A stretch of DNA of 64,000 bases from an uncultured Candidatus Saccharibacteria bacterium (GTDB lineage Bacteria; Patescibacteriota; Minisyncoccia; Phycocordibacterales; UBA918). Where the stretch lies: contig CAYNQD010000001.1 in the NCBI GenBank assembly GCA_964399295.1, forward strand, positions 399,672 through 463,671, written 5' to 3'. The notes below the pieces were generated by a model. It searched no databases and was not told the DNA's origin. It worked only from the letters and a program-made list of their open reading frames with translations. A program made the translations under genes and the position numbers. Shown here one piece after another: positions 32,907 through 55,448 of the stretch (position 1 is its first letter; each line of letters begins with the position of its first letter).

Positions 32907-32914
32907 CTTTTCTT

Positions 32915-35653
32915 TTACCACCACAATCCAGACAGTCCTGCAGCTTTCATTTGTGCGCGAGTGATAGGTCCGAAGTATCCGACAGCTGGCGAGATACCGT
33001 TTGCAGCTTGATATGCTGCGAGAGCTGATCGTGTTTGGTTAAGGAACAGGCCGGTTGCTCCAGCTGGAATTGAGTGTCCCTGTCCAATGAGAAGAGTCTG
33101 GAGAGCTACAACATCAGCACCTTCCATTCCATATTTAAGGTCTCGGACAAAAAATGCTGGTGCGGTAATTCCGAGCAGGTCTAGAATATTCTGTGGAAGA
33201 GATATACCCATACTGTGTGCTCGAAGAAGCATGTCACGATGTTGATTAACAAGGTTTTCTACTGTTTGAGTTGGTCGTTGACCTACAATGTGAGAGCTCG
33301 ATCGTCGTGTTCGTTGTGAAGGAGACACGATTTCTTCTTCAGTCGGCAAAGTGGGTTCTACTTGCGTAATGACAAAAAGCTCAGAGAAGACGACGAGCCC
33401 CAAACGAGATAGATTGTATGAACCAGAAATTCCTCCTACCAACTGGCCAAACATAGACTCCATACCTTCATCAAAATACTCATCTTCACTTTCTGACTGC
33501 CTAGTCCACGAGGTACCATTATCGAGCGAAGAATACACCACTATCCGATACCAGAGTAATTCATCGTCATATGCATCCATGCGGTTTTCTACCACAGCCG
33601 CGACTACCCCCTCACCTGTCGCTGAAGGAGCGACATATATCCACGAGTGATCTCCTGGGGCAGTACTCGTGGCCCACGATAATCCCTTATCGCTGGATAT
33701 GTACATGTTTCTGGCGAAGGCATCGATGACAAAAAATCTCTCCGCGTCTTTCGAGACCATCACTGAGAAAGGAATAACTTCTTGGTCAAGATATGAAAGT
33801 ATCGGCTCCCACGTTTCTCCATAATCATGAGAAACAATCACTACTGCCATTTCAGGATCTCCCATCATGAGCATAGGGCTCATTGCAAGCATAATTGTTG
33901 AACCATTTGCTGAGGCAGAAATTGAAGAAGGAAAAACGAACGATTCATTGGAAAGGCTGAGAGGGAGCATGTCTTCCCAATCCTCTCCTCCATTGTTCGA
34001 ATATATCACTTTGTTAAATAATGCAACATATATATGTGACAAATCACTTGATGCGGTGATACGTGAAAGATACAATGCCATAAAAGTAAGGTAGTCATCG
34101 CCAAACTCTTCCATATCATCCATTGCAATAGTTGATATTACTTGGATGTCCCAACTCTCTCCGCCGTCTACAGAACTGACAGCAATAAAATTAACTTCAT
34201 CGCCTATAAGGCTAGTGACGCCTACTGCCATTATCTTCATCCCATCTGCAGAAGACGTGACAGATGTAAGGAGTATGTCTGGAGAAGAGGTGCTGAGTTC
34301 CCAGCTCTCTCCGCCGTTGGCTGACACATATATGACAGTAGAAGGATACTCTTCCTCGCCAAGTAGTCCATGTCCTGTTGCTACTAGTCGGCTCCCGTCT
34401 GAAGATACCGAGATTGATGTCCATATATGATTTTCAAAACCTTCTAAGTGTTGCTCGAGCATTTCATATATAGAACCTTCTGGAATATCATTGTCGTCTC
34501 CAAAATCCTCTTCTATCGGCTCCTCAATGGTGGTGAAGCTCCATGAAGAACCGCTAATACCTGGGTAAGTATTGTCATCAGCATCAACAAACGCCGTATC
34601 AGGGATAACCACTAGATACTCAGTTCCATATTCAAATTCAGATATCGGACTGATTGTCACCTCATTACCGTCAATCGTAATACGATCGCTATCTATATCG
34701 AAGGACTCGAAAAGTGAATCATCTTCTGCTCGATAAATACTAATTTGTCCTGTCGATGTCGCAACGGTTGAGGTACTGAAGCTAAGAACGAGGTTGGTTG
34801 AAATAGCCACATCTTCTGCATTATCAACCGGAGAAAGTGTCGCTGAGATTGTTCCTAGTGATGCATTTGAATTTTCTGCCGCCTCCTCCTCGGTAATTGC
34901 CCGACTGTAGATCCGCACATCCTTCACATCACCCTTAAACCATCCCTGATTGTTGCTGCAGCTTGGGGCATCTATACCAGCAAATACATATACAGGATCA
35001 TCAGCTGCAGCATAGGCAGTCATCGCACTAGAAGCAACTTGCACACCATTCACATACAAGTCTAGTGTTTCTGTTTCGGGAGACCAAGTGTTGGCAATGC
35101 TATACCACTCTCCGAGCACCGCTGGCACAGAATTGACGGCTGTGACAGGAGTACCGTCCCATCCTATAGCGCGAAAATGTCCGTTCTGGATATGGAGCAT
35201 AGAAATACACCAACCCTGTCCATTTCCACCATTTGGACTGTTTGATATATGAATAATGTTCCCACTTTCACTTTCATCATTTACACGAACGGAAGCGGAT
35301 AGAGTATAGGCCTGATTGGACACGCCCATAGATTCCGTGAGAGGAGAATCGGTTCGGATGTAATCATCAACCCCATCAAAGGAAAGGCCTCCGTTTAAAA
35401 TCCAAGTTGGACCGCCATAGAGTGTACCCGGGTATCCGGTCAACGCTCCGGTTGTCCCCCCTTCTCCTTCATCAAGTGGCCAATAGAATTTCAAATCATC
35501 ACCAGCATGTGCACCAGAGACTGCGATAAAGAAAATTACCGCGAGACAAAAAGTTGTAGTAATAAAATATTTCCAGTTTTTCATTATGATTATTATTGTA
35601 TCATGACTAAATAAAATATGAACGTCATGTCCAAGTGCAAGAAATAATTGCAA
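32915..35653 (-). CDS. Large secreted surface protein: LamG/ConA-like lectin domain + BNR/Asp-box beta-propeller repeats + C-terminal peptidoglycan-binding domain
   Basis: 912 aa; N-terminal TM/signal; LamG-like YWPLDEG...FDGVDDY; six SxDxGxTW Asp-box repeats (SANGGESW, SVDGGESW, SNNGGEDW, SHDYGETW, SSDKGLSW, SLDNGTSW); C-terminal LKYGMEGADVVALQTLL...GYFGPITRAQM PG_binding_1. Confidence 0.75.
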   Translation of the reverse strand: MQLFLALGHDVHILFSHDTIIIIMKNWKYFITTTFCLAVIFFIAVSGAHAGDDLKFYWPLDEGEGGTTGALTGYPGTLYGGPTWILNGGLSFDGVDDYIRTDSPLTESMGVSNQAYTLSASVRVNDESESGNIIHISNSPNGGNGQGWCISMLHIQNGHFRAIGWDGTPVTAVNSVPAVLGEWYSIANTWSPETETLDLYVNGVQVASSAMTAYAAADDPVYVFAGIDAPSCSNNQGWFKGDVKDVRIYSRAITEEEAAENSNASLGTISATLSPVDNAEDVAISTNLVLSFSTSTVATSTGQISIYRAEDDSLFESFDIDSDRITIDGNEVTISPISEFEYGTEYLVVIPDTAFVDADDNTYPGISGSSWSFTTIEEPIEEDFGDDNDIPEGSIYEMLEQHLEGFENHIWTSISVSSDGSRLVATGHGLLGEEEYPSTVIYVSANGGESWELSTSSPDILLTSVTSSADGMKIMAVGVTSLIGDEVNFIAVSSVDGGESWDIQVISTIAMDDMEEFGDDYLTFMALYLSRITASSDLSHIYVALFNKVIYSNNGGEDWEDMLPLSLSNESFVFPSSISASANGSTIMLAMSPMLMMGDPEMAVVIVSHDYGETWEPILSYLDQEVIPFSVMVSKDAERFFVIDAFARNMYISSDKGLSWATSTAPGDHSWIYVAPSATGEGVVAAVVENRMDAYDDELLWYRIVVYSSLDNGTSWTRQSESEDEYFDEGMESMFGQLVGGISGSYNLSRLGLVVFSELFVITQVEPTLPTEEEIVSPSQRTRRSSSHIVGQRPTQTVENLVNQHRDMLLRAHSMGISLPQNILDLLGITAPAFFVRDLKYGMEGADVVALQTLLIGQGHSIPAGATGLFLNQTRSALAAYQAANGISPAVGYFGPITRAQMKAAGLSGLWW

Positions 35654-35702
35654 ACATTTCTAGTAGCATAGAGACATCGCGCAATCATTAAAAAGACGGT
35701 CC

Positions 35703-35990
35703 AGGACTCGAGTCGACTAAATGGCTTAAACTAACACTTAACTGTTCTATGAAAAATGATAGGAGTTTCGAGCCCATGACTCGTTTTTAAAATGTTTTGG
35801 AAATTATAGCGATTTTAAGAGTCTCAATAGATCTCACTACTCTGCTGACTGACTCAGTTGTGAACCCCATGAAGTGAGACCCCACAAGGGTCTTTGGGCG
35901 TTTCTTCGCTTGGTGTTTTGAGGCGTCTCAGTCTAGCTGGCCTCAAAGGGGTTTACAAACCTGACAACCCCCACGAGACCCTTTGGATAT
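35703..35990. repeat. Repeat-unit copy E (GGACTCGAGTCGACTAAATGGCTTAAA) plus a ~130-nt multi-hairpin structured segment upstream of the 912-aa gene
   Basis: Shares the GGACTCGAnnCGACTAAATGGCTTAAA unit and degenerate ATAGCGATTTTAgGAG hairpin region with modules at 53808, 54752, 56098; 35860-35985 has 3-4 consecutive perfect 6-7-bp stem-loops. Confidence 0.6.
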
Positions 35991-36004
35991 AGAACTATAT
36001 GACA

Positions 36005-37163: not shown

Positions 37164-37217
37164 AGTCACGATTTTAACGAAAACGAAAACGCATTATGAC
37201 TAACTCCATTCATTATT

Positions 37218-38495
37218 ATGAATACACAACCACTCACATGGCGAACGGAACAGCGAAAGGTCAGCGACCTCGTACCGAACGCCAAGAACCCTCGCTCACT
37301 CTCTGCACAACAAAAAGCAGACCTTGAAGCGAGCATTACTAAGTTCAACATTGCCGAGATCATGGCTTTGAACACCGACAACACGGTGCTGGCGGGTCAC
37401 GCCAGACTTGTTGTGCTGAAGGCGCTCGGACGCTCTGATGAAATGATCGATGTTCGCATTCCTTCTCGGACATTAACAAAGGAAGAGTGCGAGGAGTACA
37501 TGCTCCGCTCGAACCGCAACACTGGCTCGTGGAATCATGAACTGCTTCGTGCTTTTGATACGTCTTTCCTTCTCTCGATCGGATTTGACGATGTCGACTT
37601 GTCGGACATCTGGGAGGACGTACTTGAAATTGAAGATGATGATTTCAAGGAAGAGGATGCGGTTGAAGAAGCCAAGGACACCGACATCAAGAACGGTGAT
37701 CGGTTTCAACTTGGAGATCACCTGCTTGCGTGTGGCGACAGCACGGACCAGACAGTCGTGAAGAATCTTGTTGGCGACAAGAAAATCGATATGGTCTATG
37801 TTGACATTCCATACAATATAAATTTGAGCTACAACAAGGGATTAGGTGGAAAATCCCACTATGGCGGTGATGTCGACGACAAGAAATCCGATACTGAATA
37901 TCGTGCATTTGTGAAGAAACTCATGGAGAACGCTCTCGCGGTCTCCGCAAAGGATTCGCACCATATCTGGTATTGCGATTCAAGCTATGTGGGCATGATG
38001 CAATCACTCTTTGCAGAAGTTGGCATCGCATACAAGCGCACCGCATTGTGGATCAAAAACGGCATCAACTGCACTCCGAAGATAGCATTTTCGAAGATGT
38101 ATGAGCCGGCCTTGTACGGAGTAACCGGACGACCATACCTTTCACCAAAGCACACGAAATTCGGCGAGGTGCTTAACAAGGAGGTTGGTATCGGTAACGC
38201 AACGATTGATGACATCACAGACATGATTGATATCTGGCTCGCAAAGCGTGATGCGGGTCAGGATTATAAACATCCAACGCAGAAGCCACTCTCGCTTCAC
38301 GAGCGACCGCTCAATCGTTGTACCAAAATCGGAGATGCGGTCTTGGATCTTTGTGGTGGTAGCGGATCTACACTCCTAGCCTGCGAACAAATGAAGCGCA
38401 AAGCGTTTTTGGTCGAACGCAGTCCAGTATTTTGTCAGGTAATCATCAACCGCTATGAAGACTCCAGTGGAAACAAAGCAGTCAAGCTCAATTAA
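37218..38495 (+). CDS. ParB-like nuclease domain fused to beta-class N6-adenine/N4-cytosine DNA methyltransferase
   Basis: 425 aa; N-terminal ParBc-like (VSDLVPNAKNPR...), then LGDHLLACGDSTD, DIPY (motif IV), HPTQKP, DLCGGSGST (motif I) in beta-class order. Confidence 0.85.
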   Translation: MNTQPLTWRTEQRKVSDLVPNAKNPRSLSAQQKADLEASITKFNIAEIMALNTDNTVLAGHARLVVLKALGRSDEMIDVRIPSRTLTKEECEEYMLRSNRNTGSWNHELLRAFDTSFLLSIGFDDVDLSDIWEDVLEIEDDDFKEEDAVEEAKDTDIKNGDRFQLGDHLLACGDSTDQTVVKNLVGDKKIDMVYVDIPYNINLSYNKGLGGKSHYGGDVDDKKSDTEYRAFVKKLMENALAVSAKDSHHIWYCDSSYVGMMQSLFAEVGIAYKRTALWIKNGINCTPKIAFSKMYEPALYGVTGRPYLSPKHTKFGEVLNKEVGIGNATIDDITDMIDIWLAKRDAGQDYKHPTQKPLSLHERPLNRCTKIGDAVLDLCGGSGSTLLACEQMKRKAFLVERSPVFCQVIINRYEDSSGNKAVKLN

Positions 38496-39252
38496 GCACG
38501 GAGATGTGGTTCGGCTTGGCGACCACATTCTCTATTGTGGCAACGCTCAGGATGTTGACCTTGCAACGCTCCTTGAGGGCAGAACTATTTCCTGTCTTGC
38601 GTGTGACCCTCCGTATTCAGTAGATTATGCGGCCAGCAAGCGTAGTATCGGCAAGATTGCAAAAGATAAAGATATCGCAAATGACGGATTCATGACAGCT
38701 GAGGAGTATGTATCGTTCACGAAGTCGTGGATCTCGCCCGCATTGCCACATCTCTCAAAGAAGAACAGCATCTACGTCTTCAACTCGGACAAGATGATCT
38801 TCGCACTTCGACAGGCATTTGTGGAATTGGATCTGAAGGTCGCTCAGCTCATTATCTGGGTGAAGTCTCAGCCAATTCTCGGACGGCTCGACTATCTCCC
38901 ACAACACGAGTTGATCCTCTACGGCTGGAAAGGTACCCACGAGTGGCGACGTGGGAAGGATAAGTCAGTGATGTTTGCGCCGAAGCCATCGCGAAGTGCA
39001 CTCCATCCAACAATGAAGCCTGTCTCGCTCATGCGTCGAATTATCCTTAACGCCACTCGAGTTGGAAGTGTTGTCTATGACCCCTTTGGTGGGAGCGGTA
39101 CCACGCTAATTGCCTGCGAACACACCAAGCGTCGATGCATCATGGTCGAGATGGATCTAGAACACTGCGAGACAATCGTAAAGCGGTGGGAAAAACTAAC
39201 TGGTCATGGCACGGAAATCATCAGATCCGAAGGAGCGGAGCAAGCGGTTTAA
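38455..39252 (+). CDS. Beta-class N6-adenine/N4-cytosine DNA methyltransferase
   Basis: 265 aa; LGDHILYCGN, DPPY, HPTMKP, DPFGGSGTT; overlaps upstream gene by 41 nt. Confidence 0.85.
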   Translation: MKTPVETKQSSSIKHGDVVRLGDHILYCGNAQDVDLATLLEGRTISCLACDPPYSVDYAASKRSIGKIAKDKDIANDGFMTAEEYVSFTKSWISPALPHLSKKNSIYVFNSDKMIFALRQAFVELDLKVAQLIIWVKSQPILGRLDYLPQHELILYGWKGTHEWRRGKDKSVMFAPKPSRSALHPTMKPVSLMRRIILNATRVGSVVYDPFGGSGTTLIACEHTKRRCIMVEMDLEHCETIVKRWEKLTGHGTEIIRSEGAEQAV

Positions 39253-40364: not shown

Positions 40365-40674
40365 TTTTCCCTACTAGGATTTAGTTGTGCGGAACCTTCA
40401 GGTAATCAAAAGGCTCCCAGCCATCGCGATCCAACCTTTCGGCCAGACCCATACCTGTTTCCAGATATGACCTAGTAGAGTGACTCTGACTGGGAGTCCT
40501 TTGATCTCTACTAGGTTTTTGCGCCATACCTTAGGAAACCCTAAGGGTTAGGCGACTATATTCAATTGTCGTACGAGTACATAATACCAAAATCGGTATC
40601 ATTTGGCACTTTAGCTTACATTCGGAGCTTTGCGAAGTAGCTGTTACCAACACATTCACGTATACTCTATAACC

Positions 40675-41256
40675 ATGTATTCCCGAGAAAAGTATGAGAA
40701 TTTGAAGGCAAAATATGGGGAATACGCCAGTTGGGCTATTTGGAATGAAAAAGACGAGCGTGATACTTCTGTTATAGATGCATCTTTTGAACAGCTATCT
40801 CCACATTATGTATTCATTGGTCTGAACATATCAGCTCCACTACGAGACTCTTCTTGGGCGAATTTTCGTGGTGGCAGACATGATCGAAAACTTAAGTACG
40901 CTTGCAACAATACTGCATTGCGTGGCTCATACCTTACTGATCTCTTTAAAGGAATACCTGAAGCAAAGTCATTCAAGGTAAAGGGGATGCTTACCAATGA
41001 CATCATTCAGGAAAATGTATCCTTCTTTCAAAACGAAATGGATGATATCGGATTGGACAAGGAATCTGTTCTTATCCTTCTCGGCGATTTAGCAACGCGA
41101 TATTTTGATGAACATTTTCGAAAACTCTTTACTAATTCGACCATAAGTTACCGCCACTACTCATCGTATGGAACCGATCGTGATTGGGTTGAGGGTTTAT
41201 GGAATCAACTTGATGTTGATGGCGATTTTGATTCTATCAAACTGAAAAGTAGTTAG
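40675..41256 (+). CDS. Hypothetical protein (divergent partner/paralog of 39621..40364)
   Basis: ORF track start 40630; Met at 40675 (MYSREKYENLKAK) plausible; YVFIGLNISAP...YLTDLFKG...H.SSYG pattern parallels upstream-divergent gene. Confidence 0.4.
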   Translation: MYSREKYENLKAKYGEYASWAIWNEKDERDTSVIDASFEQLSPHYVFIGLNISAPLRDSSWANFRGGRHDRKLKYACNNTALRGSYLTDLFKGIPEAKSFKVKGMLTNDIIQENVSFFQNEMDDIGLDKESVLILLGDLATRYFDEHFRKLFTNSTISYRHYSSYGTDRDWVEGLWNQLDVDGDFDSIKLKSS

Positions 41257-41275
41257 GCCAAAAATGAAACACTGC

Positions 41276-42685
41276 TCAATCTATCTTGTAGTAGGAATAC
41301 ATGTCTTTTAATTCCAGTCCTAAGCCAACCACATCCAGTCTATCCTTCCTATCATCAAAGAGAGCGTTGATTAAGTGTTTTCTCTCTCGATCAACAGCCA
41401 GATGTATTTGCCGGTGACAACGTGGACAGAGTGTCACATAGTTCGCAAGTACTTCGATAGAGTGAGAGAAATCATTTCTAAATTCACGAGGAATCAAGTG
41501 ATGTAATTCTAGATAATTTTTCCCATTTGCCTTTGCTGTAAAATAAATTGGACTACAATTATTCATGGTTTCCAGAGCACAAGTATATCCACTTTGAATC
41601 CTGGCTTGCCGCTTACGCAGGTTGTAAACAGCTTTAATTTTTTGCTTACCCTCTTCACTAGTTTCGTCAATATAGTCTTCAGCAATATCATGATCCTCAA
41701 CTTCAATCGAGTGATCCTCTACTCCCACCACATCTGAGATTGCCATCTCAATTTCCTCAAGCTCAAGAATTTCGACAAAGATTGGATCAAACACATTCTT
41801 GTTTTCCTGTAGGTAGGTCAAGACTCGATTTCGATCTATAGGAGCAATGGAGGTATTGTAATTGCCAACAAAAACCTCCGGCAGGTTTGCCATGTTTGGG
41901 TCTTTGGACCGGATAAGGAAAAGGGTTAGGAGGAACACTTTTGTCTCATCAAGGAGCATGTTGTGATTGAAGTTGCCACTTGGTTGGTACTTCTTCGATA
42001 TGCAACACGCAAAGGTTTCCGTGCTGATATTACTCTCAATGTATTGAGCTAACTCCTCACGCTCTTCTTCAGTTGATCGCAGGTAACCTATAAGAAAATC
42101 TGAGTCGTCATAAAAAGAATGGATGTAGAAGAATGGACTTCGAAGTGCCGTGCTTAGTGATTCAGATGTAAGCAATTGTTTTGCTGAGTCAGTAAGCAAT
42201 TCTTCGGTCACTCCATCGGTGCTCAGTAAAAATCCAAGCAGATCTTCTTTAACCCGGTAGACAATATAGTTTTTTCGGTTTGTGTAATATCCATTCAACA
42301 AGAACAGGTAGTTGAGTAACCACTTTTCGGCACTCTCAAAATCATTTTCTATAAACTGACCATAGAGTTGCCCTTTTGTGGTCCTGCTATATAAGTCATT
42401 TACATCCTTTCGAAAGAGCTTCGATTGGATCATGTTTATGACGTGATGCTTGTGCTTCTCCTGCCCGTGTCCCTGTCGAGGCCACTGATCTCTTGGCATG
42501 TTTTCTACCTCAAGAAAAGTAGTGAACGCATCAATGAATGCTTTCTGTGTTCTGAAGTTCGTGTTGGTGTATTCAAACATTCTTCCGGCAGCACCCTTAC
42601 CCAAAGAAGCGTGGTTTTTAAACCACTCTTGATTAGCATTTTTCTCTTTGTATATATCTACTAAACTCATGTGTTTGTTTCGCAA
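41276..42685 (-). CDS. HNH endonuclease-domain protein (putative restriction endonuclease)
   Basis: 469 aa; C-terminal LELHHLIPREF...VTLCPRCHRQIH HNH/zinc-finger motif; large N-terminal domain; operonic with two D12 MTases. Confidence 0.7.
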   Translation of the reverse strand: MRNKHMSLVDIYKEKNANQEWFKNHASLGKGAAGRMFEYTNTNFRTQKAFIDAFTTFLEVENMPRDQWPRQGHGQEKHKHHVINMIQSKLFRKDVNDLYSRTTKGQLYGQFIENDFESAEKWLLNYLFLLNGYYTNRKNYIVYRVKEDLLGFLLSTDGVTEELLTDSAKQLLTSESLSTALRSPFFYIHSFYDDSDFLIGYLRSTEEEREELAQYIESNISTETFACCISKKYQPSGNFNHNMLLDETKVFLLTLFLIRSKDPNMANLPEVFVGNYNTSIAPIDRNRVLTYLQENKNVFDPIFVEILELEEIEMAISDVVGVEDHSIEVEDHDIAEDYIDETSEEGKQKIKAVYNLRKRQARIQSGYTCALETMNNCSPIYFTAKANGKNYLELHHLIPREFRNDFSHSIEVLANYVTLCPRCHRQIHLAVDRERKHLINALFDDRKDRLDVVGLGLELKDMYSYYKID

Positions 42686-43677
42686 ATGAACAGAAGTTCT
42701 TTGTGGTCTTTAAAGTCCGTCTTGCCACTGTTGAAGAATTTGTGGGCTACCTCTTTACGCGTGACCTTACCCCTAGAGGAAAGGGTATCTACCAACTGCT
42801 CCTCAGTGATCTTATTGTTTGACGCACTGCTCTTTGCAGAGTAGGTATTATTGTAAGATACAACGATTATTTTTGCCTGCAAGTTATCGATCAGATCTTT
42901 GAACACTTGGGGGGCCTTTGCTCGTGAGTATTCGCTCTTTAGTTCGTCTCTCTTAAATTTCATGGATGTCCCCTCGAATTCTGTTGGTTTATTCCAACGG
43001 ACCAAGTTCTCTAGTACGTGATAGAAGTTTACATACTGACGTGCATTGTACGGCGGATCGATATATGCGATATCACAAGTGATGCTACGTACGAGCTTAT
43101 TAGCATCTATGTTGTGCATCATTGCCGTCCCTGTGAATTCCTCTAATTTTGGGAGGCGTAAATCCACACCTTTTTCTTCTGGAGCTTTTGAGAGAAAGTG
43201 CTCGAAGTGTCCCACTGTATTGGCGATTTTATCTGCGGTATACATGAGTGCAGTAAGTAAAATATACCGCTCTCGCTCGGTAAGTCGGGTATTTGCTATT
43301 CGTTCTCGCAGATATCCGATTTTCTTGGCATCCGGCTGAGAGAAGTACTTACCTCCGTATATTTTTGAGAAGTAATTTGCCTCCAAGTCATTGCCGTCTA
43401 TTGCATTGAATTCTGCAACGATCCTCTTGAGCTTCTCTTTGCTGTATTTTCCAGTACCAAACCACGCCTGGTATGCAATGTAATTCGATCGAAGGGTGTC
43501 GTTTACAATCACATCCATTCCTTTCTCCAGCATATAGTTTGCGACCACACCAGTACCAGCAAACAAGTCAGCGAATACCACCTTTCCGTTGCAGAAAGGT
43601 TCGATGCTGTCGTAAATGTTGTTCAAGAGAGAACTTTTACTTCCAGTATATCGTCTGTTGTTAATTAATAAGCTCAT
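42667..43677 (-). CDS. D12-class (Dam-family) N6-adenine DNA methyltransferase
   Basis: 336 aa; N-terminal RYTGSKSSL, DLFAGTG (motif I), DPPY (motif IV). Confidence 0.85.
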   Translation of the reverse strand: MSLLINNRRYTGSKSSLLNNIYDSIEPFCNGKVVFADLFAGTGVVANYMLEKGMDVIVNDTLRSNYIAYQAWFGTGKYSKEKLKRIVAEFNAIDGNDLEANYFSKIYGGKYFSQPDAKKIGYLRERIANTRLTERERYILLTALMYTADKIANTVGHFEHFLSKAPEEKGVDLRLPKLEEFTGTAMMHNIDANKLVRSITCDIAYIDPPYNARQYVNFYHVLENLVRWNKPTEFEGTSMKFKRDELKSEYSRAKAPQVFKDLIDNLQAKIIVVSYNNTYSAKSSASNNKITEEQLVDTLSSRGKVTRKEVAHKFFNSGKTDFKDHKELLFICETNT

Positions 43678-44602
43678 AATTCGTAATCAAAATTTCGCGC
43701 TCAGCCGCTTGTCGGTTGATCTTATTATAGCTAGCACTGCGGTAGTGGTAATTGATGTCCCAAATCTGCCAGTCATTTCGGTTAAAGGTGCGCACCCATT
43801 CCGATAATGGATTGTTGGTTGCGCCCACTTTAGTGAGTACGTTGGAAAGTGCAAACTTCTTCCCTTTCCTATCAAGAGCTTTTAATAGATCGATCAGTTC
43901 GTGTTCGGTTTCTTCTGTCCAATTTCCTGCCTCGTTGTAGACAGCATCCCCTACCAAGTATGGAGGATCAGCATATATAAAATCTGCCTTAAAGAGAATG
44001 TCTTGAATCTTTTTATCTCGGAAGTCGCCGCATATAAATTTGTAATTGATCTTTTGTACTCGATCTATGTACTGGGTTAGCTTTCGGATGTTGCTGTTAT
44101 TCAGATCGGTTTTCCCGACTGGCAAATTGAAGTCTCCGTCCCGATTAAATCGCATGTCATTGTTAAATGCATACACTACCAGCAAGTAAAGGAGATCGAA
44201 TGCTTTCTTTGAGGATTTATTTTTAAGAGCATTATAATCATCACGTAGTTTGTAGTACCCCTCTGAGTTGTATGCCTTGAGTCCGTTGTTGTCTGCTTTG
44301 GGAATACCTTGGCGGTATGTTTGATATCCGTACTTTGCAGAGTATGACAGTCCGTACTTTTCAACGAGTTTTTCTAGTCTCGGTAAAAGTTTTTCAATGG
44401 TTGAGACCGCTAAGTGTTGAAGCAGACCAATCACATTCTCGTTGTTGTCTATAAAAATAACTTTCTTTGCGTTTACACTTAGTCCTACTGTCGCGCCTCC
44501 GCAAAATAAATCTACAAATGTATCAACCTCTTTAGGAAATCGAGTTGCAAACTGTTCCATTAACCTTGACTTGTTTCCTGTGTAATTGAGTGGTGTTTTC
44601 AT
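43661..44602 (-). CDS. D12-class (Dam-family) N6-adenine DNA methyltransferase (second copy)
   Basis: 313 aa; NYTGNKSRL, DLFCGGA, ADPPY. Confidence 0.85.
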   Translation of the reverse strand: MKTPLNYTGNKSRLMEQFATRFPKEVDTFVDLFCGGATVGLSVNAKKVIFIDNNENVIGLLQHLAVSTIEKLLPRLEKLVEKYGLSYSAKYGYQTYRQGIPKADNNGLKAYNSEGYYKLRDDYNALKNKSSKKAFDLLYLLVVYAFNNDMRFNRDGDFNLPVGKTDLNNSNIRKLTQYIDRVQKINYKFICGDFRDKKIQDILFKADFIYADPPYLVGDAVYNEAGNWTEETEHELIDLLKALDRKGKKFALSNVLTKVGATNNPLSEWVRTFNRNDWQIWDINYHYRSASYNKINRQAAEREILITNYELIN

Positions 44603-44616
44603 AAATAAAATATTTT

Positions 44617-44814
44617 CTACCTCGCCTTTCGTGAGGTGCCATTCTCATATCGTCGAAGGAAACTATCGATATCAGACCGCTTAATTCGCCATTGTCCGAT
44701 TTTGAACGCCCTAAGCCTCTTCGCTTTAATGTAGCGCATAATCGTTCGATCACTTACTCTCAAAGTTCTCGCTGCTTCCTTTACGGTCAGTACTTTTTCA
44801 GCCATCATAGGCAC
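44617..44814 (-). CDS. Excisionase-family helix-turn-helix DNA-binding protein
   Basis: 65 aa; LTVKEAARTLRVSDRTIMRYIKAKRL MerR-like excisionase HTH; divergent from serine recombinase. Confidence 0.65.
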   Translation of the reverse strand: MPMMAEKVLTVKEAARTLRVSDRTIMRYIKAKRLRAFKIGQWRIKRSDIDSFLRRYENGTSRKAR

Positions 44815-44947
44815 TTTATATTATAGCTTACGCTGTCATGTTTTGTCCTATTTATTTGACCTCTGTAGGTGGATAACTTGTCCGACAAACACTTACCAAC
44901 ACTCTCCAAAACGGCACCTAGACTCCTAGGAGCCGTTGCGTCATTAG

Positions 44948-46240
44948 TTGTGTTGTATGGAAAAAACACAACAAACGGAGGTTCTACGGTACTGCCTCTA
45001 TGCACGCAAAAGTACCGAAGCGGAGGATAAGCAGGCTCTATCCATTGAGTCCCAAGTAAAGGAAATGCAGTCCTTAGCGGAGCGAGAGCAACTTAATATC
45101 GTGGAAACCAAGAGAGAGTCCCACTCCTCTAAAGAAGTAGGTCAACGTCCGGTATACAACCAGATGCTCAATGAAATACGCGAAGGTAAGTACAATGCCA
45201 TCCTTACGTGGGCACCAGATAGATTAAGTCGTAATGCGGGAGACTTGGGATCGGTGGTAGACCTCATGGACCAGAAGCTTCTGCATGAGATACGCACCTA
45301 CGGACAGAAGTTCACGAACAACCCAAATGAGAAGTTCCTGCTGATGATCCTCGGGTCACAGGCAAAGTTGGAGAACGACAACAAGGCGGTCAATGTGAAG
45401 CGAGGACTACGAACACGCTGTGAAATGGGATGGAGACCAGGAGTAGCTCCTACCGGATACTTGAATGAGAAGCATGTCGATAAGAAATGTCAGGTTCGGA
45501 TTGATCCGAAACGAGCACCCGTCATAAAGCAGATGTTTGAGAAGGTAGCGTACGAACACTGGAGCGGACGGAAAGTGTACCGATGGCTACGAGAGATTGA
45601 TTTCAAGACCCATCGCGGAAAGCCACTGGTGCTAGCGAACATTTATATAATCCTGAGAAATTCGTACTACCACGGTGACTTCGAATACCCTGTCGGAAGC
45701 GGACAGTGGTATACCGGCAAACACACACCGATTATAGATAAGGATTTATTCGACAAGGTGCAGATGACGCTCAATGAGAACTACATACCCAAGACTGAGA
45801 GCAAGGAGTTCGCCTTTACCAAGCTCATACGATGCGGATATTGCGGCTCAGGGATATCGGCTGATGAAAAATTCAAGAAGCTGAAGAATGGCGGTGTGAA
45901 TCGCCATGTCTACTACTTCTGCTCTAAGTCACGGAATATCGACTGCAAGAATCCTTATATCAACGAACCGAGTCTGATTGAAGAACTAATAGGTCTGATG
46001 GATACGGTAGACCTAGATGAGCTTGGAGTACGTGGCAGGATAGAAGATGAGATCAGACGGTTCAATAAATTCAGGTCGGGAGTACTGGGGCACAAACAAG
46101 ATAAGGTGGAGATAGATGTGGACGTACGAAACTATACAAAGTACCTACTGCGAGAAGGAACGCTACTAGAAAAGCGAGAACTGCTCGGATGCCTACAAAG
46201 CAAACTTTTCCTGAAAGATAAAAAGATTGGAATTGAGTAA
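44948..46240 (+). CDS. Large serine recombinase (resolvase catalytic domain + recombinase domain + zinc ribbon)
   Basis: 430 aa; catalytic YARKST near N-terminus; recombinase-domain and CGYCGS...C..C zinc-ribbon region. Confidence 0.85.
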   Translation: MCCMEKTQQTEVLRYCLYARKSTEAEDKQALSIESQVKEMQSLAEREQLNIVETKRESHSSKEVGQRPVYNQMLNEIREGKYNAILTWAPDRLSRNAGDLGSVVDLMDQKLLHEIRTYGQKFTNNPNEKFLLMILGSQAKLENDNKAVNVKRGLRTRCEMGWRPGVAPTGYLNEKHVDKKCQVRIDPKRAPVIKQMFEKVAYEHWSGRKVYRWLREIDFKTHRGKPLVLANIYIILRNSYYHGDFEYPVGSGQWYTGKHTPIIDKDLFDKVQMTLNENYIPKTESKEFAFTKLIRCGYCGSGISADEKFKKLKNGGVNRHVYYFCSKSRNIDCKNPYINEPSLIEELIGLMDTVDLDELGVRGRIEDEIRRFNKFRSGVLGHKQDKVEIDVDVRNYTKYLLREGTLLEKRELLGCLQSKLFLKDKKIGIE

Positions 46241-46265
46241 AAGAATAATCAAACCGTAGGATTCT

Positions 46266-47956: not shown

Positions 47957-48417
47957 TACTCATAATCAGCAATTACAATCTTCTTCTGACCCATCATAAT
48001 CTTGAAAGCATCGGGCTTCTTCATAAGCTCCTCTATATTCTCTGGCACCACCTGCCAACTCAAGCCAAATTTGTCCTTGCACCAACCACACTGTTCGTTC
48101 TCTGGATTAGCAGAAAGCTTCTCCCAATAGTAGTCGATCTCTTCTTGATCTTTGCAGTAAATAGCAAAAGATACTGCTTCGGTGAATTGAAACTCCGGAC
48201 CAGCGTTGATGGCTGTGAAGTGCTGACCATCAAGCTCAAACTCTACCGTGAGTGGTTTGCCCGCCATATCGAGCTGAAAATCAGCTAGACCTTCTTCAGC
48301 ACTGTTGGGGTAGTGGACGGTAGTAATAATTTTGCTGTTTGGGAACACAGACGTGTAGTATTCTGCAGCTTCTACAGCATTTCCGTTGAACCATAAGTTT
48401 GCGACGATTTTTTGCAT
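47956..48417 (-). CDS. VOC/glyoxalase-superfamily protein, PhnB-like
   Basis: 153 aa; [14 protein letters not shown]...FGLSWQVV pattern of PhnB/3-demethylubiquinone-MTase-like domain. Confidence 0.7.
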
Positions 48418-48459
48418 AGTATAAAAATGATTGGCTGATAATATATTTAGTTTAACAGA

Positions 48460-48490
48460 AAAGACCGCTCTTTTGGAGCGGTCTTTTCTG
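48460..48490 (-). terminator. Rho-independent terminator (bidirectional-capable) for the 1256-aa surface protein transcript
   Basis: AAAGACCGCTC-ttttg-GAGCGGTCTTT hairpin with flanking T runs on both strands. Confidence 0.7.
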
Positions 48491-48566
48491 TCTGGTTACC
48501 GGACTCACCGGGTATGCAATGTGCGGAATAGTACCTATGCGTCTCAGTCACTTGACTTAGCATATG

Positions 48567-48632
48567 GCTGCTGCCGCAGAAGGACTCGAACCGTCTCGGT
48601 CTAGAACCAAAATATAGCTTAAAATATAGACT
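48567..48632 (-). repeat. tRNA-3'-end-derived repeat copy B
   Basis: Minus strand ...GGTTCTAGACCGAGACGGTTCGAGTCCTTCTGCGGCAGCAGC; abuts stop of 48636..52406 gene, same position as copy A relative to its paralog. Confidence 0.7.
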
Positions 48633-48635
48633 TTT

Positions 48636-51600
48636 TTACCACCACAACCCAGAAAGCCCTGCCTCTTTCATCTGTGCACGAGTAATTGGCCCGAAGTAGC
48701 CACCCCGTGGCGCGATACCGTTCGCAACCTGATACGCATCAAGTGCATACTGAGTTTGAGTACCAAAGTAACCTGTTGCCCCAGCCGGTATAGAGTACCC
48801 TTGTCCAATAAGAAGCGTCTGGAGTCGACGAACATCTTCCCCGTCCATACCATATTCAAGATCACGAACAGATAGTGATCCATTCTCAACACCAAGCATG
48901 ATAAGAATATTTTGTGGTAATACAATACCAGCTTCATGTGCCCGGATAAGTAAATCTCGATGCTGATCAACTATTTTTTGCAGGGCTTGTTCAGGGCTAT
49001 CGTACTTACATAACTCCTGTTTGTGTGCTGAAAAATACTCATAGTTAGAAGCGTTAGTATCTTTGCAGCCAAAGTGTGTACCACCAGTTGTCCGACTACC
49101 TGTAGGTTCTTCTGTTTCAGGACTAGTGCCAAACAATCCAAAAATAGAGAATGATGGAGTCGTACAAGAAATAGAGTTTGCATCAGTATCTAGTACACAG
49201 TCATTGAGTGCTATCCATTGCCCTCCGGTGTAGTGATAGAGCCAGAGTGTTGATTCATCGATACCCGAGACTTCATCTTCAGTGTATTCGTAATCAATTG
49301 TTACTTCAGTATCAAACGAATCGAAAATAGTATCACCATTTACAATTGCTTTTACATCAAATACCGTAGCGCCAATTTCATTTGGTGCCGAGCTTGGACG
49401 TCCAAGTGCGGTGAGTACTGCAGTGTTTGGTACTGCCTTTACCTGGATAACAATTGTTGAGTCAACAGGAGCATCTGCTGTTACTGAAAAAGTCTTTGCA
49501 TTTTCAGTCACATTGGTCGTGCCAGTGTTACCAGCATATATTGTGGTTGAAGTAGCTGTTGTTGGTGTAGCATTACCTGTACAACCAGTCGTGGTAAATG
49601 TACTGTCTGTTGACGTAGCAGTATTGGACGCACCATCAGTTGAAACAACGGCATAATGATACATAGTACAAGACAACAAACCAGAAAGATTTACTACATG
49701 CTCAGTCACGCGTGGTGATGTATTGATTTCAGCAGTAGTGGTTCCGTACAAATTAGTTAAACCATAAGATACCTTTGAAGAAGCATTCTCATCAGTAGTC
49801 CAAGAGATTGTAGCTCCTGAATCAGAAATTGATGATGCGACAACTTCACTAACTATAGGATCATCAGCATCTTCTTCCGGCTCCTCAGAACCGGTCCCAA
49901 GACTGAACATTTCTCCAGGAGTAAGGGCTCGATTATAAACTCGCACATCGTCAATATAGCCATCGAATGGTCCTGAACTTCCGCCATCTTGTACCCCAAT
50001 ACCAATAGAGAAATTATCTCCCGTACCGTAATTATCAGTAGGACTATCTGAAGATATGCCTACTTGGTCGCCATCAACATACAAGATCACATTTTCACCA
50101 TCACCAAGACAGGTAATATGGTGCCAAACATTGAAAAATGTTTCAGGATCATAAGTCCAATTCACCTCACCATGAGGTGTCCAGCACCTTAGTTGGTTGT
50201 CAGTGGTGAAAAAGAATTCAAATACATTATTTGCTCCAAACCAACCCTCGTTATCTGCAGCGGAACGTGGATATGCCCAACCAGCTAGAGTAAATTCAGG
50301 ATAATTGTTGAGAGAGAGTGAAGTGGTGATTCCGTCATTTACACCATCAAAATTCAAGCTATGAGAATCTGTAAACTCCACATCTGGAGGTGTAGTCGTG
50401 GAATATGAGGCACCGCTAATAGTTCCATTTTTACGATTAACAGTAGAATCAAGTGCCGTACTTCCTGATCCTTCGTCAAATCTCCAGTAAGCTACGAGAG
50501 AGTCATCCCAAGTCTGCCCAGTCGTTACAGCAACGGTTGCTTCAGCAGAACTTGGAGAAGGGTCTATATATCCGTCAGCTGGAACGGCATTTATACTATG
50601 ACTCAAAGTGGTACTAGCATTCACAGCCGAACCAACTGTTGCTTCAACAGTGACGGTAGCCACCTCCCCATCATCTAAACTAACTACAAATGAATCAATA
50701 TCAGATTCATCTCCAGAACCTGAATCAGCACCAGTCGAGGTGTAGCTCCAAATCACATCAGTGAATCCTGTATGTCCGATAACCATATCGTTGGTCACTG
50801 TTACCTCACCAGCATCATTTGGACCATTGTTAGTGACCGTATACGTATATTCTAAAGTGTCGCCATATCGATATGTACCATCTGGAGCATCAGTGACAGA
50901 AACGGCAATATCTGTCGGTAGAGACACTTGCAGATTGTCTATCGCATGAATGTTTGTTGATCCGCCTGTACCAGCTGTAAAGCCAAGTTTAAAGAAGTCT
51001 GGCGGCACGTCGTCATAAGCATAATCATCAATCACTGTGTGCCATGTTGCTCCATCGTCCCAACTCATCTCAACCCGAATTACCGCACCAGAGTCATTTG
51101 GTGATATAGATATTCGAGCCCTTCTCCACCCTCCATCAATTGTTTGACTGATTGGTGAATCCGATACTCTTGTGTGAGTTAAGTAGTTATATCCACTAGT
51201 TCCATTTCCAGACCCGCGTAAAGTGACGTTATCTGGAGCAGAACTTCCAATCCCAGTTTTTCCACCACCTGCTACAGGAAAACCTCCATACTCATCAAAT
51301 CCAACTCCAAGATATGCATGAGGTACTCCGGGAGTACTGCCACTAAGCGCATATCCAAGCGAAGAACCAAAGGCACCAGCTGCGATATTACCAACATTTA
51401 CCAAATCTCCATCCACCAAAAAGAATGCGAGACCATCTGCACCGGTTCCACCACCAGAGTAGTAGTCGAACTCAACAACAATACCGTTATCAGAAGAAAA
51501 AGCGGTGTCATAATATCCTAGTCCAGCTTGACTAGTAGCGGCAGTAGTGAGACGCAAGGTTTCTTCTGAATCTACCACAGCTCCCCAGGACGCACTACTA

Positions 51601-52406
51601 CCAAGAATCCATTTAACTGGTTTAGCTTCATCAAAATTTTCAGAAATAGGAAACACTCCAGAAAGCTCAGAAATTTCACCTGGAGTTAGGGCCCGTGAAT
51701 ATACTCGTACATCATCAATTTTGCCTTGGAAATACCGCTGCAAACTATTTTCATAGTTTGAGGCTCCGATAGGAAGAGATACATCGCCTAGATTAATATC
51801 CATATCGAGACCAGTGATAGTGTCTCGTGCAACTCCATCATAGTAGAGCGTGCCGTTACCCTGATCTATTACTATAGAAATGTTATGCCATTCGCTATCT
51901 GCATAACTCACTGTGTAATTTAGGTCTTTACGAGCACCATCAGCTCCACGAAATAAACCTTGAATTTCGCCTGAAACAAGATATATTTCGGCCAGAGGAG
52001 TACCCGGTTTACTGCTATCACGAGCTGAAAATATTCCTTTACCTGACTGATTTGTACCAGTCTTAAACCATAGCGACCACGTAAAAGAATCCCCGTCTGA
52101 ATACACAGGGCTGTACGTAGTTGCAACAACGTCGTCTGTACCATCAAAATCTAAACTGCGTGGATTAGTAAAACTTACATCAGGAACATCACTCGAAGGC
52201 TGTGGTTTGTCGTTTGCACCCGTAGCTCCACTTGGTGTTCCGTGACGATCACCTCCTGATGAATCAATAACCGAACTTACTCCATCACTCATGGTCTCAT
52301 CCAATTTCCAATATCCGACTAAATCATCCGACGCAGAGATTGTTGGAACTATATAAAATAATCCTACTGCCAGTACTGTTGATGTAATAAAAAAATATCG
52401 CTTCAT
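48636..52406 (-). CDS. Giant secreted surface protein: two LamG/ConA-like lectin domains, FN3/Ig-like modules, C-terminal peptidoglycan-binding domain
   Basis: 1256 aa; signal peptide; YWKLDETMSDG...FDGTDDV and YWRFDEGSGSTALDS...FDGVNDG LamG-like modules; C-terminal LEYGMDGEDVRRLQTLL...GYFGPITRAQMKEAGLSGLWW nearly identical to C-terminus of the 912-aa paralog. Confidence 0.75.
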   Translation of the reverse strand: MKRYFFITSTVLAVGLFYIVPTISASDDLVGYWKLDETMSDGVSSVIDSSGGDRHGTPSGATGANDKPQPSSDVPDVSFTNPRSLDFDGTDDVVATTYSPVYSDGDSFTWSLWFKTGTNQSGKGIFSARDSSKPGTPLAEIYLVSGEIQGLFRGADGARKDLNYTVSYADSEWHNISIVIDQGNGTLYYDGVARDTITGLDMDINLGDVSLPIGASNYENSLQRYFQGKIDDVRVYSRALTPGEISELSGVFPISENFDEAKPVKWILGSSASWGAVVDSEETLRLTTAATSQAGLGYYDTAFSSDNGIVVEFDYYSGGGTGADGLAFFLVDGDLVNVGNIAAGAFGSSLGYALSGSTPGVPHAYLGVGFDEYGGFPVAGGGKTGIGSSAPDNVTLRGSGNGTSGYNYLTHTRVSDSPISQTIDGGWRRARISISPNDSGAVIRVEMSWDDGATWHTVIDDYAYDDVPPDFFKLGFTAGTGGSTNIHAIDNLQVSLPTDIAVSVTDAPDGTYRYGDTLEYTYTVTNNGPNDAGEVTVTNDMVIGHTGFTDVIWSYTSTGADSGSGDESDIDSFVVSLDDGEVATVTVEATVGSAVNASTTLSHSINAVPADGYIDPSPSSAEATVAVTTGQTWDDSLVAYWRFDEGSGSTALDSTVNRKNGTISGASYSTTTPPDVEFTDSHSLNFDGVNDGITTSLSLNNYPEFTLAGWAYPRSAADNEGWFGANNVFEFFFTTDNQLRCWTPHGEVNWTYDPETFFNVWHHITCLGDGENVILYVDGDQVGISSDSPTDNYGTGDNFSIGIGVQDGGSSGPFDGYIDDVRVYNRALTPGEMFSLGTGSEEPEEDADDPIVSEVVASSISDSGATISWTTDENASSKVSYGLTNLYGTTTAEINTSPRVTEHVVNLSGLLSCTMYHYAVVSTDGASNTATSTDSTFTTTGCTGNATPTTATSTTIYAGNTGTTNVTENAKTFSVTADAPVDSTIVIQVKAVPNTAVLTALGRPSSAPNEIGATVFDVKAIVNGDTIFDSFDTEVTIDYEYTEDEVSGIDESTLWLYHYTGGQWIALNDCVLDTDANSISCTTPSFSIFGLFGTSPETEEPTGSRTTGGTHFGCKDTNASNYEYFSAHKQELCKYDSPEQALQKIVDQHRDLLIRAHEAGIVLPQNILIMLGVENGSLSVRDLEYGMDGEDVRRLQTLLIGQGYSIPAGATGYFGTQTQYALDAYQVANGIAPRGGYFGPITRAQMKEAGLSGLWW

Positions 52407-55447: not shown

Positions 55448-55448
55448 C

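Follow-up and report, generated by a model that had tools for sequence, protein, structure and literature searches.

The ssrA genomic islands (ssrA-GIs) of Dehalococcoides are tandem islands that lie downstream of a single-copy tRNA-like gene and are bounded by direct repeats of the 3′ end of this gene (PMC3146451). An extra conserved motif, which does not align with the gene, is situated just upstream of the repeat, and a large serine recombinase (LSR) is encoded on the reverse strand (PMC3146451). Many of these units lack an integration module and were read as cis-mobilizable elements joined by accretion, and their likeness to staphylococcal cassette chromosome (SCC) islands has been pointed out (PMC3146451). 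Here we analyse a stretch of 64,000 nucleotides from an uncultured Candidatus Saccharibacteria bacterium (NCBI GenBank assembly GCA_964399295.1, contig CAYNQD010000001.1, positions 399,672 to 463,671 of the forward strand), hereafter called the window, which contains an array of small gene units, or cassettes, downstream of a tRNA-Gln gene. The ssrA-GIs are the closest described system to this array, with which they share tandem repeat-bounded islands, a motif beside the repeat, an antiparallel LSR and integrase-less units. The two differ in their target, which is transfer-messenger RNA there and tRNA-Gln here, and in their boundary, which comprises a 15-nt motif there and a ~48-nt P arm together with a ~160-nt element termed D1 here. 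Moreover, the units described here are smaller, down to ~0.95 kb with a single gene, the LSR lies 2.3 kb from the repeat in a block that varies between strains, in contrast to the ssrA-GIs, and the DsiA, RecF and ParB module of the ssrA-GIs is not present.

The serine recombinases CcrAB insert SCC elements such as SCCmec at the 3′ end of rlmH. These elements are flanked by short direct repeats and form tandem composites that include recombinase-less pseudo-SCC elements. The array resembles these composite islands in 3′-end insertion, boundary repeats and tandem composites, whereas target, host phylum and cargo differ and the LSR is a candidate only. The tycheposons of Prochlorococcus, an organism with a streamlined genome, combine tRNA-specific integration, flanking partial tRNAs and stacking with tyrosine or large serine recombinases and niche-relevant cargo (bioRxiv 10.1101/2020.12.28.424599). 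Tycheposons are defined by a common set of integration and replication genes, whereas no replication genes and mostly no hallmark genes were seen in the cassettes described here. Our literature search revealed no description of tRNA-Gln islands, or of an LSR of this family, in bacteria of the candidate phyla radiation (CPR). To our knowledge, very little is known about gene gain and loss in these bacteria (also termed Patescibacteria), which have tiny, host-dependent genomes.

Junctions of the tRNA-Gln array

We consider it probable that window positions 56312 to 32843 represent a composite island at tRNA-Gln, in a CPR genome of Paceibacterota type, that was built by serial site-specific insertion. 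An initial annotation, made from the sequence of the window, had already noted that two genes for giant surface proteins (912 and 1256 aa) are each followed immediately by a repeat resembling a tRNA 3′ end. The conserved block indeed starts a few bases past both stop codons. It measures ~75 nt, of which the last ~28 nt copy the tRNA-Gln 3′ end. When up to three mismatches were allowed, the 23-mer GGTTCTAGACCGAGACGGTTCGA was found at four positions of the window (three exact occurrences and one with a single mismatch), always on the minus strand, while shuffled sequences led to an expectation of 0.00. Altogether, four intact copies of the repeat (A to D) and one decayed copy (E*) lie co-oriented downstream of tRNA-Gln (Table 1). 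The genes of the array, the repeats and tRNA-Gln are all located on the minus strand, and all positions follow the numbering of the window.

The repeat consists of two parts. The P arm, TATTTTAAGCC-N7-GGTTCTAGACCGAGAC, comprises ~48 nt of non-tRNA sequence, and the core has the form GGTTCGA(A/G)TCC..CGGCAGC. Positions 49-76 of the hidden Markov model of the repeat align to the tRNA-Gln 3′ end in the window and in every related locus that has one. Furthermore, of the 13 T-loop-like 11-mers in the window, which without exception fall within these junctions, 12 are located on the minus strand. A block of 22-35 nt in the P arm is invariant across lineages with unrelated cargo and is not tRNA-Gln sequence; it therefore fits a protein-binding site better than passive homology. 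The second boundary element, D1, was detected in four copies. Copy 1 contains a hairpin (GAGAC-N6-7-GTCTC), a terminator-like hairpin CGAGTCATGGGCTCG with a T-run (terminator-like match at 56180-56166) and then TATTTTAAGCC..GGTTCGAGTCC. D1 may be read as the element-borne P′ arm.

Junctions were lined up on the T-loop for comparison with related loci, which are designated by an L and a number. In the cassette-free loci L040, L042 and L044, an intact tRNA-Gln with encoded CCA is followed by CATATGCTAAGTCA(A/G)GTGACTGAGACGCAT and then by a conserved element that we term X. The tRNA-Gln of the window is directly followed by D1 in place of this trailer and X, as in an attL site. Copies D and C are flanked by the non-tRNA P arm on the left and by D1 on the right and thus resemble attP. 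Copy B also has the P arm on its left, and its right flank, AGCCATATGCTAAGTCAAGTGACTGAGACGCAT and X, is the flank of the intact tRNA-Gln in L040, L042 and L044, as in an attR site. The empty site, which is tRNA-Gln joined to CATATGCTAAGTCAAGTGACTGAGACG and X, has a matching form in these three cassette-free relatives, all of them distant. This set of junctions is the pattern that is expected from units of P arm, core and D1 that insert serially into the 3′ part of tRNA-Gln.

From high to low coordinates, unit 1 follows the tRNA-Gln anchor and consists of D1, the genes for a 203-aa hydrolase and a NUDIX protein, and repeat D. Unit 2 comprises D1, the gene for an HXXEE membrane protein and repeat C. 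In unit 3, D1 is followed by a DUF1398-like gene, two small open reading frames (ORFs), the gene for the 1256-aa protein and repeat B, with the trailer and X behind it. Unit 5 begins after E* and contains D1, the gene for the 912-aa protein and repeat A. Copies C and D hence adjoin HXXEE and NUDIX genes that are unrelated to those of the 912-aa and 1256-aa proteins. The claim of the initial annotation that the repeat is part of a cassette-like mobile unit could be retained, as the repeat forms the distal junction of each unit. Cassette 5 may, as we infer, have inserted at E*, which possibly also marks where the LSR-bearing segment ends distally. The outer boundary at repeat A is supported by locus L005, in which a PG-binding protein, the repeat and a homologue of a 1094-aa surface protein follow in the same distal order as in the window.

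Mechanistically, the attachment site of the units would mimic the 3′ part of tRNA-Gln that extends from the T-loop to the acceptor end. If it were circular, each unit would have a single ~240-bp attP-like site composed of P arm, core and P′ arm (D1). Insertion in the T-loop region would rebuild the tRNA and place D1 behind it, while P arm and core would remain as a tRNA-like stub behind the last cargo gene, and further insertions would stack in tandem by accretion. The stop codons of the 1256-aa and 912-aa proteins would abut such stubs because in units 3 and 5 no further cargo gene comes after theirs.

Table 1 Features of the tRNA-Gln array and its surroundings, in descending order of position in the window.
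Feature	Position	Strand	Description
tRNA-Gln(CTG)	56241-56312	minus	Anchors the array on the attL side; called by ARAGORN and by Rfam (tRNA model, 50 bits)
D1 copy 1	56079-56238	minus	Directly after tRNA-Gln; ~160 nt; nhmmer E 9e-48
Cassette 1 cargo	54980-56060	minus	203-aa serine-hydrolase-like protein (55449-56060) and 155-aa NUDIX hydrolase (54980-55447); Pfam
Repeat D	54879-54962	minus	P arm (TTTAAGCC..AGTTCTAGACCGAGAC) and tRNA-Gln-like core; with next D1 an internal, attP-equivalent junction
D1 copy 2	54736-54883	minus	After repeat D; nhmmer E 1.7e-39
Cassette 2 cargo	54077-54817	minus	HXXEE-motif membrane protein, 246-aa ORF as listed; Pfam
Repeat C	53946-54029	minus	Internal junction
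D1 copy 3	53802-53947	minus	After repeat C; nhmmer E 1.1e-40
Cassette 3 cargo	48636-53775	minus	DUF1398-like protein of 142 aa (53347-53775), 103-aa ORF (52903-53214), 88-aa ORF (52602-52868), 1256-aa protein
1256-aa ORF	48636-52406	minus	Last cargo gene of cassette 3
Repeat B	48565-48648	minus	Starts just past the 1256-aa stop; attR-type junction of the tRNA-proximal array
Ancestral tRNA-Gln trailer and X	48427-48564	minus	Trailer (CATATGCTAAGTCAAGTGACTGAGACGCAT); X, a GCATACC-hairpin-GTAACCAGA motif with intrinsic terminator; nhmmer
LSR	44948-46240	plus	Resolvase, Recombinase and Zn_ribbon_recom; Pfam; antiparallel to the array
HTH_17 gene	~44617-44808	minus	Beside the LSR
Strain-variable block	40651-46260		LSR, HTH_17, two Dam-type methyltransferases, HNH protein, 208-aa ORF
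E*	35870-35960 (about)	minus	Decayed tRNA-Gln-like remnant GGGGTTCACAACTGAGTCAGTCAGCAG, preceded by CTAGACTGAGACG; read from sequence, aligned with other junctions
D1 copy 4	35688-35843	minus	Immediately upstream of the 912-aa gene; nhmmer E 3.6e-24
Cassette 5 cargo	32915-35584	minus	889/912-aa protein with LamG, Big_5, six-Asp-box propeller and PG_binding_1
912-aa ORF	32915-35653	minus	Likely ATG start gives 889 aa (32915-35584); cargo of cassette 5
Repeat A	32843-32924	minus	Distal attR-type junction; encoded CCA kept, followed by a non-D1 flank
1094-aa surface protein	27651..30935	minus	Outside the array; C-terminus of PG_binding_1 type but of a different kind

Exchange of units between related loci

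Exact-pattern scans retrieved the repeat from 7 genome contigs and 15 metagenome contigs. All titled genome records among them are Patescibacteria/CPR metagenome-assembled genomes (Yonath-, Kaiser- and Taylorbacteria, Paceibacterota and two labelled Saccharibacteria). Wherever enough sequence was present, a tRNA-Gln lies 1-7 kb upstream of the repeat on the same strand, and the cargo in between differs from locus to locus: GNAT-ASCH proteins, a reverse transcriptase, a 7-kb glycosyltransferase cluster, a thymidylate kinase or a metal-handling cupredoxin/DsbD-HMA cluster, in some cases encoded on the opposite strand. The same boundaries thus enclose unrelated cargo in at least ten contexts from several CPR lineages. 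Together with the NUDIX/serine hydrolase and HXXEE units of the window, this diversity does not agree with a repeat that is specific for adhesin genes, as the initial annotation had proposed.

Cassettes have been exchanged between organisms. L019 contains a counterpart of the HXXEE unit with 93.3% identity over 1056 nt, an alignment that takes in D1, the repeat and the beginning of the D1 that comes next. In L019, this unit stands first behind tRNA-Gln, and the tRNA-Gln genes of L019 and the window agree at only 51 of 72 positions (71%). The listed HXXEE ORF of the window begins inside D1, and its first ~36 residues align in another frame in L019; the true start is probably a downstream Met. 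Besides the HXXEE unit, the 3′ end of the NUDIX gene and its repeat recur in L007 in a different downstream context, and one gene of the cupredoxin cluster is found together with the repeat in three different downstream contexts (L010, L016 and L021).

In the Yonathbacteria loci L001, L013, L014 and L017, the tRNA 3′ end and the repeat share the perfect 23-nt direct repeat GGTTCGAGTCCTAGTCCCGCAGC; D1 follows the tRNA copy only, and it is the distal copy that retains the encoded CCA. The copies of the tRNA 3′ end in the window are imperfect, unlike the perfect repeats of these loci and of L047. The latter contains a 165-nt insert (17201-17367) that is bounded by a perfect 21-nt direct repeat beginning in the T-loop. 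From these sequences, the T-loop of tRNA-Gln appears to be a general recombination hotspot for more than one element family. Like this insert, a perfect CCTGG-TTCGAAT-CCAGG minihelix that was observed 75 nt past tRNA-Gln in L042 (12795-12856) is a tiny remnant of a T-arm.

In several lineages, the tRNA-Gln islands include reverse transcriptase genes (L046/L047 12245-13625, L003 1951-2997, L030 3523-4944). A bAvd-like neighbour of one of these genes points to a diversity-generating retroelement.

The boundary sequence itself could be a non-autonomous, tRNA-derived element resembling miniature inverted-repeat transposable elements or short interspersed nuclear elements, in which case the ~240-nt repeat with D1 would have spread through intergenic spaces and the genes in between would be residents. 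Repeat and D1 are in fact contiguous at the internal junctions, the boundary sequence is strongly conserved across lineages, and contigs break at the copies, for which the length of the repeat alone is sufficient. Such an element would not be expected to leave complementary half-units at the ends of an array, namely tRNA and D1 without P arm on one side and P arm and core without D1 on the other (B, A and L001). Nor does it explain that the flank of copy B is the trailer of intact tRNA-Gln genes elsewhere, that a gene and both its boundaries moved jointly in L019, and that all copies are co-oriented and restricted to the region downstream of tRNA-Gln. We therefore regard this explanation as very improbable and retain serial insertion at tRNA-Gln.

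Folding of the repeat, D1 and X

Given its position right behind stop codons, its T-loop sequence and an orientation that agrees with that of the genes, the repeat could alternatively act at the RNA level. It would then be a tRNA-like 3′ untranslated region, a processing signal or a terminator, through which the mRNAs of the surface proteins are stabilised or released. The folding energy, though, is non-significant in three of the four copies (z +0.09, −0.11 and +0.18) and marginal in copy A only (z = −2.0). A CTA is found at the anticodon-like position, but there is no 5′ half or acceptor strand, no D-arm partner and no variable loop, the T-stem is unpaired, and neither ARAGORN nor the Rfam tRNA model called any of the copies. 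A functional, suppressor or split tRNA was therefore rejected. The repeat was likewise rejected as a terminator, since it lacks a G+C-rich hairpin with a T-run and the terminator-like hairpin sits in D1 and X instead. Unrelated genes precede the repeat as well, and in L002, L004 and L006 it points towards the 5′ end of a gene encoded on the opposite strand. Taken together, a function of the repeat at the RNA level is highly improbable. The sequence shared downstream of the two surface protein genes is thus not that of a generic terminator, and the similarity of the proteins is not of the low-complexity kind, two simpler explanations that the initial annotation had raised.

For D1, an inverted pair, GGGCTCGAAC/GGTTCGAGTCC, includes the T-loop motif, but RNAalifold detected only one compensatory pair, and single-stranded DNA folds were significant in two of five copies. 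The case for a structured RNA in D1 is accordingly weak.

X is a conserved motif of ~70 nt (..ATTGCATACC-hairpin-GTAACCAGA..) with an intrinsic terminator at its end. In cassette-free loci of Paceibacterota, it stands directly behind tRNA-Gln. It occurs in the window (48427-48544, minus strand) and in L003 (5922-6032), L004 (1717-1826), L010 (11335-11441), L040 (13646-13724), L044 (16112-16177) and L036 (1-63). Compensatory changes were found in both the hairpin and the terminator stem, while an Rfam scan of X assigned no family and returned terminator-type sub-threshold matches only. X possibly represents a small RNA or, alternatively, a structured trailer of the tRNA.

A large serine recombinase linked to tRNA-Gln

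The LSR is the sole site-specific recombinase in the window and lies 2.3 kb from the nearest repeat. Seven Pfam scans, which covered the ORFs of the window and cassettes of other loci, revealed no other integrase inside cassettes or elsewhere in the window. The LSR is only ~25% identical to known phage serine integrases. It belongs to a family of more than 8000 proteins at E ≤ 1e-30, the best 120 of which share 78-90% identity with it and are spread across named Parcubacteria/Paceibacterota lineages. Four other lineages were sampled via the LSR protein, independently of the repeat. In all four, a tRNA-Gln is located 1.6-6 kb beyond the 3′ end of the LSR gene on the opposite strand, as in the window, and in two of them X directly follows this tRNA-Gln. 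Moreover, the LSR or a fragment of it is found near the repeat in L007 and L003. Across the LSR loci L040-L047, the genes between LSR and tRNA-Gln vary, and a ParB_N-N6_N4 methyltransferase gene or an HTH_17 gene is situated on the 5′ side of the LSR gene.

Units that carry no recombinase would have been moved in trans or are now fixed. With homologues beside tRNA-Gln in four other lineages and a family that is found at this position across Paceibacterota, the LSR of the window is the best candidate for a catalyst acting in trans. That it moves the cassettes is a tentative assignment rather than a result, and we would place it somewhat below an even chance.

Several observations weigh against a composite island that was built by serial site-specific insertion with the help of this enzyme. 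None of the four loci sampled via the LSR contains P-arm/D1 cassettes, so that the link between LSR and cassettes is one of position, and the LSR itself belongs to a strain-variable block (L030). Pfam detected no recombinase in units 1, 2, 3 and 5 or in the cassettes examined at other loci, and no tyrosine recombinase in any ORF of the window that was scanned. The cores of repeats A to D differ from the 3′ end of the resident tRNA-Gln and from one another, and the acceptor strand of D would mispair; hence, the units were probably not all inserted singly into this tRNA. No circular or excised form was observed. Repeat and D1 are without exact match in a viral contig collection, and a viral origin was therefore rejected. 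Finally, the homology between attP and attB extends past the core into the tRNA 3′ end and a related trailer, which is compatible with a RecA-dependent single crossover.

Homologous recombination by RecA, for example after DNA uptake, would require no dedicated recombinase, with the tRNA 3′ end and trailer and the P-arm/D1 sequences serving as portable homology. It would account for units without integrases, for junction homology that runs well beyond the core, such as D1 positions 1-80 that come after the repeat in L002, L003, L004 and L010, and for the adjacent units that were seemingly co-inherited in L019. It is more difficult to reconcile with the invariant P-arm block, which is not tRNA-Gln sequence and persists despite unrelated cargo, with perfect short direct repeats that start in the T-loop and have unrelated sequence on either side (L001, L047), and with the persistent linkage of the LSR to tRNA-Gln. 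On this evidence, the RecA route is improbable, and site-specific insertion at tRNA-Gln remains our preferred explanation.

A more far-reaching form of this explanation would be an integron-like capture system of Paceibacterota, in which a resident, conserved LSR beside tRNA-Gln moves recombinase-less cassettes of 1-7 kb in trans and distant lineages swap them. The ~240-bp site of each cassette, derived from the T-arm of a tRNA, would then bear several GGTTCNANNCC putative recombinase-binding motifs. As in integrons, small, co-oriented units without recombinase are collected at one site, each with its own recombination site, and the recombinase is external to the cassette. In contrast to integrons, there is no IntI tyrosine recombinase, no attI and no Pc. 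The core, read from the sequence against the published consensus of attC, is GGTTCGA(A/G)TCC; the R″ and R′ cores of attC (RYYYAAC/GTTRRRY) are absent, and the D1 hairpin is weakly supported. We consider a capture system of this kind unlikely at present.

The array also resembles tRNA-inserted islands and prophages in its attL and attR sites formed by a tRNA 3′ end, the restoration of the tRNA and attP arms of ~240 bp. It starts directly 3′ of an intact tRNA, ends in a distal repeat and has an empty site in relatives, but an element-borne integrase is missing: the tyrosine integrase of classical tRNA islands was detected neither in the window nor in any cassette examined. Like an accretion array, it consists of tandem units that are delimited by an att repeat, with the internal junctions D and C equivalent to attP. 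The CPR host group, the tRNA-Gln target, a large composite boundary with several T-loop-like motifs and very small recombinase-less units are what distinguish the array from the systems compared here.

Surface proteins carried by the array

The 912-aa and 1256-aa proteins were originally described as giant paralogues with near-identical C-termini. BLASTP comparison confirmed that both ends are shared, with 26% identity between the N-terminal LamG modules (E 3e-9) and 68% identity over the C-terminal 119 aa (E 1e-48), but no full-length paralogy was found; as judged from the sequences, the relationship is one of domain sharing. Near-identity holds for the extreme end, where 20 of the final 21 residues match, and not for the C-terminal module as a whole. 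According to Pfam, the 912-aa protein contains Laminin_G_3, Big_5, BNR/Sortilin-Vps10 and PG_binding_1 domains, and the 1256-aa protein contains two stretches of Laminin_G_3, Laminin_G_2/_1, DUF11 and PG_binding_1, besides a sub-threshold match to the fn3-like Pur_ac_phosph_N. The PG_binding_1 scores of the pair (30.1 and 35.2 bits) exceed the Pfam cut-off of 23, and the N-termini of both proteins are hydrophobic. A protein search further revealed a family of proteins of 488-996 aa in which LamG and Big_5 are followed by a variable middle part and PG_binding_1. Based on the hydrophobic N-terminus, the LamG modules, the Ig-like or fn3-like spacers and the C-terminal PG_binding_1, both are probably secreted, multi-domain proteins of lectin or adhesin type that are held at the cell wall by their common C-terminal domain. 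They may plausibly serve in the attachment to host cells or glycans.

The 1094-aa protein, as previously noted, shares modules with the 1256-aa protein, namely a 364-aa module with 40% identity (E 9e-62) that contains the GCKD..ASNY..HKQELC motif. Its C-terminal 240 aa are 74% identical to an 808-aa protein of L005.

The six Asp-boxes (S-x-D/N-x-G-x-x-W) that had been reported for the 912-aa protein were all located, at residues 421, 471, 529, 585, 630 and 686. They lie in a beta-rich propeller region (residues 390-700) of a structure model that is of low confidence overall (mean predicted local distance difference test score 59.8). The fold search with this low-confidence model yielded only generic propeller or lectin-propeller matches such as Ycf48, whereas sialidase folds reached TM-scores of just 0.14-0.21. 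No FRIP/RIP motif was detected in the protein by a motif scan, and BNR_2 (24.5 bits; cut-off 31.4) and BNR_3 remained below their cut-offs, while Sortilin-Vps10 was above its own. Sequence searches against the PDB gave no match and were uninformative. Sialidase-type cleavage, which the initial annotation had suggested besides carbohydrate binding, is thus not supported for this protein, nor is its assignment as a sialidase (GH33).

At the DNA level, the A and B loci share 305 nt at 76% identity, consisting of the repeat and ~230 nt of coding region. A surface protein gene and its repeat might hence form an adhesin-specific cassette that copies itself within the genome. The combination of a ...GLSGLWW* C-terminus with the repeat does recur in L005 and L015, in proteins with a different N-terminal, GGLVG-rich repeat architecture, and the LamG protein family with Big_5, a variable part and PG_binding_1 exists. 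However, the common 3′ end of A and B is about as divergent from the copies in L005 and L015 as between A and B, which is no sign of recent duplication within the genome. The N-terminal parts are only 26% identical, and the repeat bounds many unrelated cargos. Among four other ...LWW* genes that were ascertained by protein search and not via the repeat, none has the repeat after its stop codon, which rules out an obligatory linkage. Spread of an adhesin-specific cassette by self-copying is consequently highly improbable. More likely, the similarity at the 3′ end goes back to an old lineage of cassettes whose upstream domains were exchanged while the wall-anchor module remained joined to the P arm.

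Strain variation and neighbouring genes

The same array is present on contigs that derive from five runs of a single project. The sole variant, L030 (95.8% identity), differs in the LSR block and not in the cassettes, so that the strain-level presence or absence of cassettes that had been envisaged did not appear. In L030, type I restriction-modification (R-M) genes, a reverse transcriptase and YgjP take the place of the block. The right boundary of the block, at ~40651, was measured from the break beside a LOOT RNA; the left boundary was inferred. The LOOT RNA (Rfam RF03000, 87 bits; 40428-40554, minus strand) lies exactly at the block boundary. Its counterpart in L030 (~5040-5170) adjoins the reverse transcriptase gene and shows many substitutions compared to the copy of the window.

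The intervening segment from X to E* encodes, in this order, a 3-dmu-9_3-mt-like protein, a DUF2200 protein, an FAD monooxygenase, the LSR (on the opposite strand), the HTH_17 protein, methyltransferases, an HNH protein, the LOOT RNA, further methyltransferases and a META protein. Between 36 and 46 kb, there are four DNA methyltransferase genes, two of the N6_N4 type (37218-39252) and two of the D12 type (42667-44602), together with a transposase-like HTH ORF and the gene for an HNH protein of 469 aa. These methyltransferases and the HNH protein indicate that the island doubles as a defence and R-M hotspot.

Past repeat A, the outer flank carries a 158-aa ORF and the genes for a metallo-beta-lactamase-fold protein, the 1094-aa protein and an alpha-2-macroglobulin. 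The latter (2162 aa; MG2, A2M_BRD, A2M, bMG6, bMG10 and TED domains) is encoded convergently, with a 17-nt overlap, to a 704-aa class A penicillin-binding protein that contains transglycosylase and transpeptidase domains; the two genes together occupy 19059-27645. Other bacteria are known to pair alpha-2-macroglobulin with a penicillin-binding protein, and the window adds an instance from a CPR genome. Further away (16167-18445, plus strand), an IS1595-family transposase gene (304 aa) is followed by genes for a Dam-type D12 methyltransferase and a PD-(D/E)XK nuclease, which may be an R-M pair carried beside the insertion sequence.

Implications for gene acquisition in CPR bacteria

The repeats account for the assembly breaks at this locus and provide a sequence tag with which variable surface protein cassettes can be traced in metagenomes. 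For bacteria with tiny, host-dependent genomes, the locus identifies the T-loop of tRNA-Gln as a specific insertion site that is used recurrently, with a stack of small recombinase-less units that are common to distant lineages. Among these units are large, predicted wall-anchored proteins of lectin or adhesin type, plausibly for attachment to the host. If the conserved LSR were the catalyst, it would constitute a new tRNA-targeting serine integrase with defined sites and, together with the cassettes, a simple and widespread gene-capture system in CPR bacteria. Should the integron-like interpretation hold true, symbionts with tiny genomes would possess a dedicated means of swapping adhesins, defence genes and small metabolic genes.

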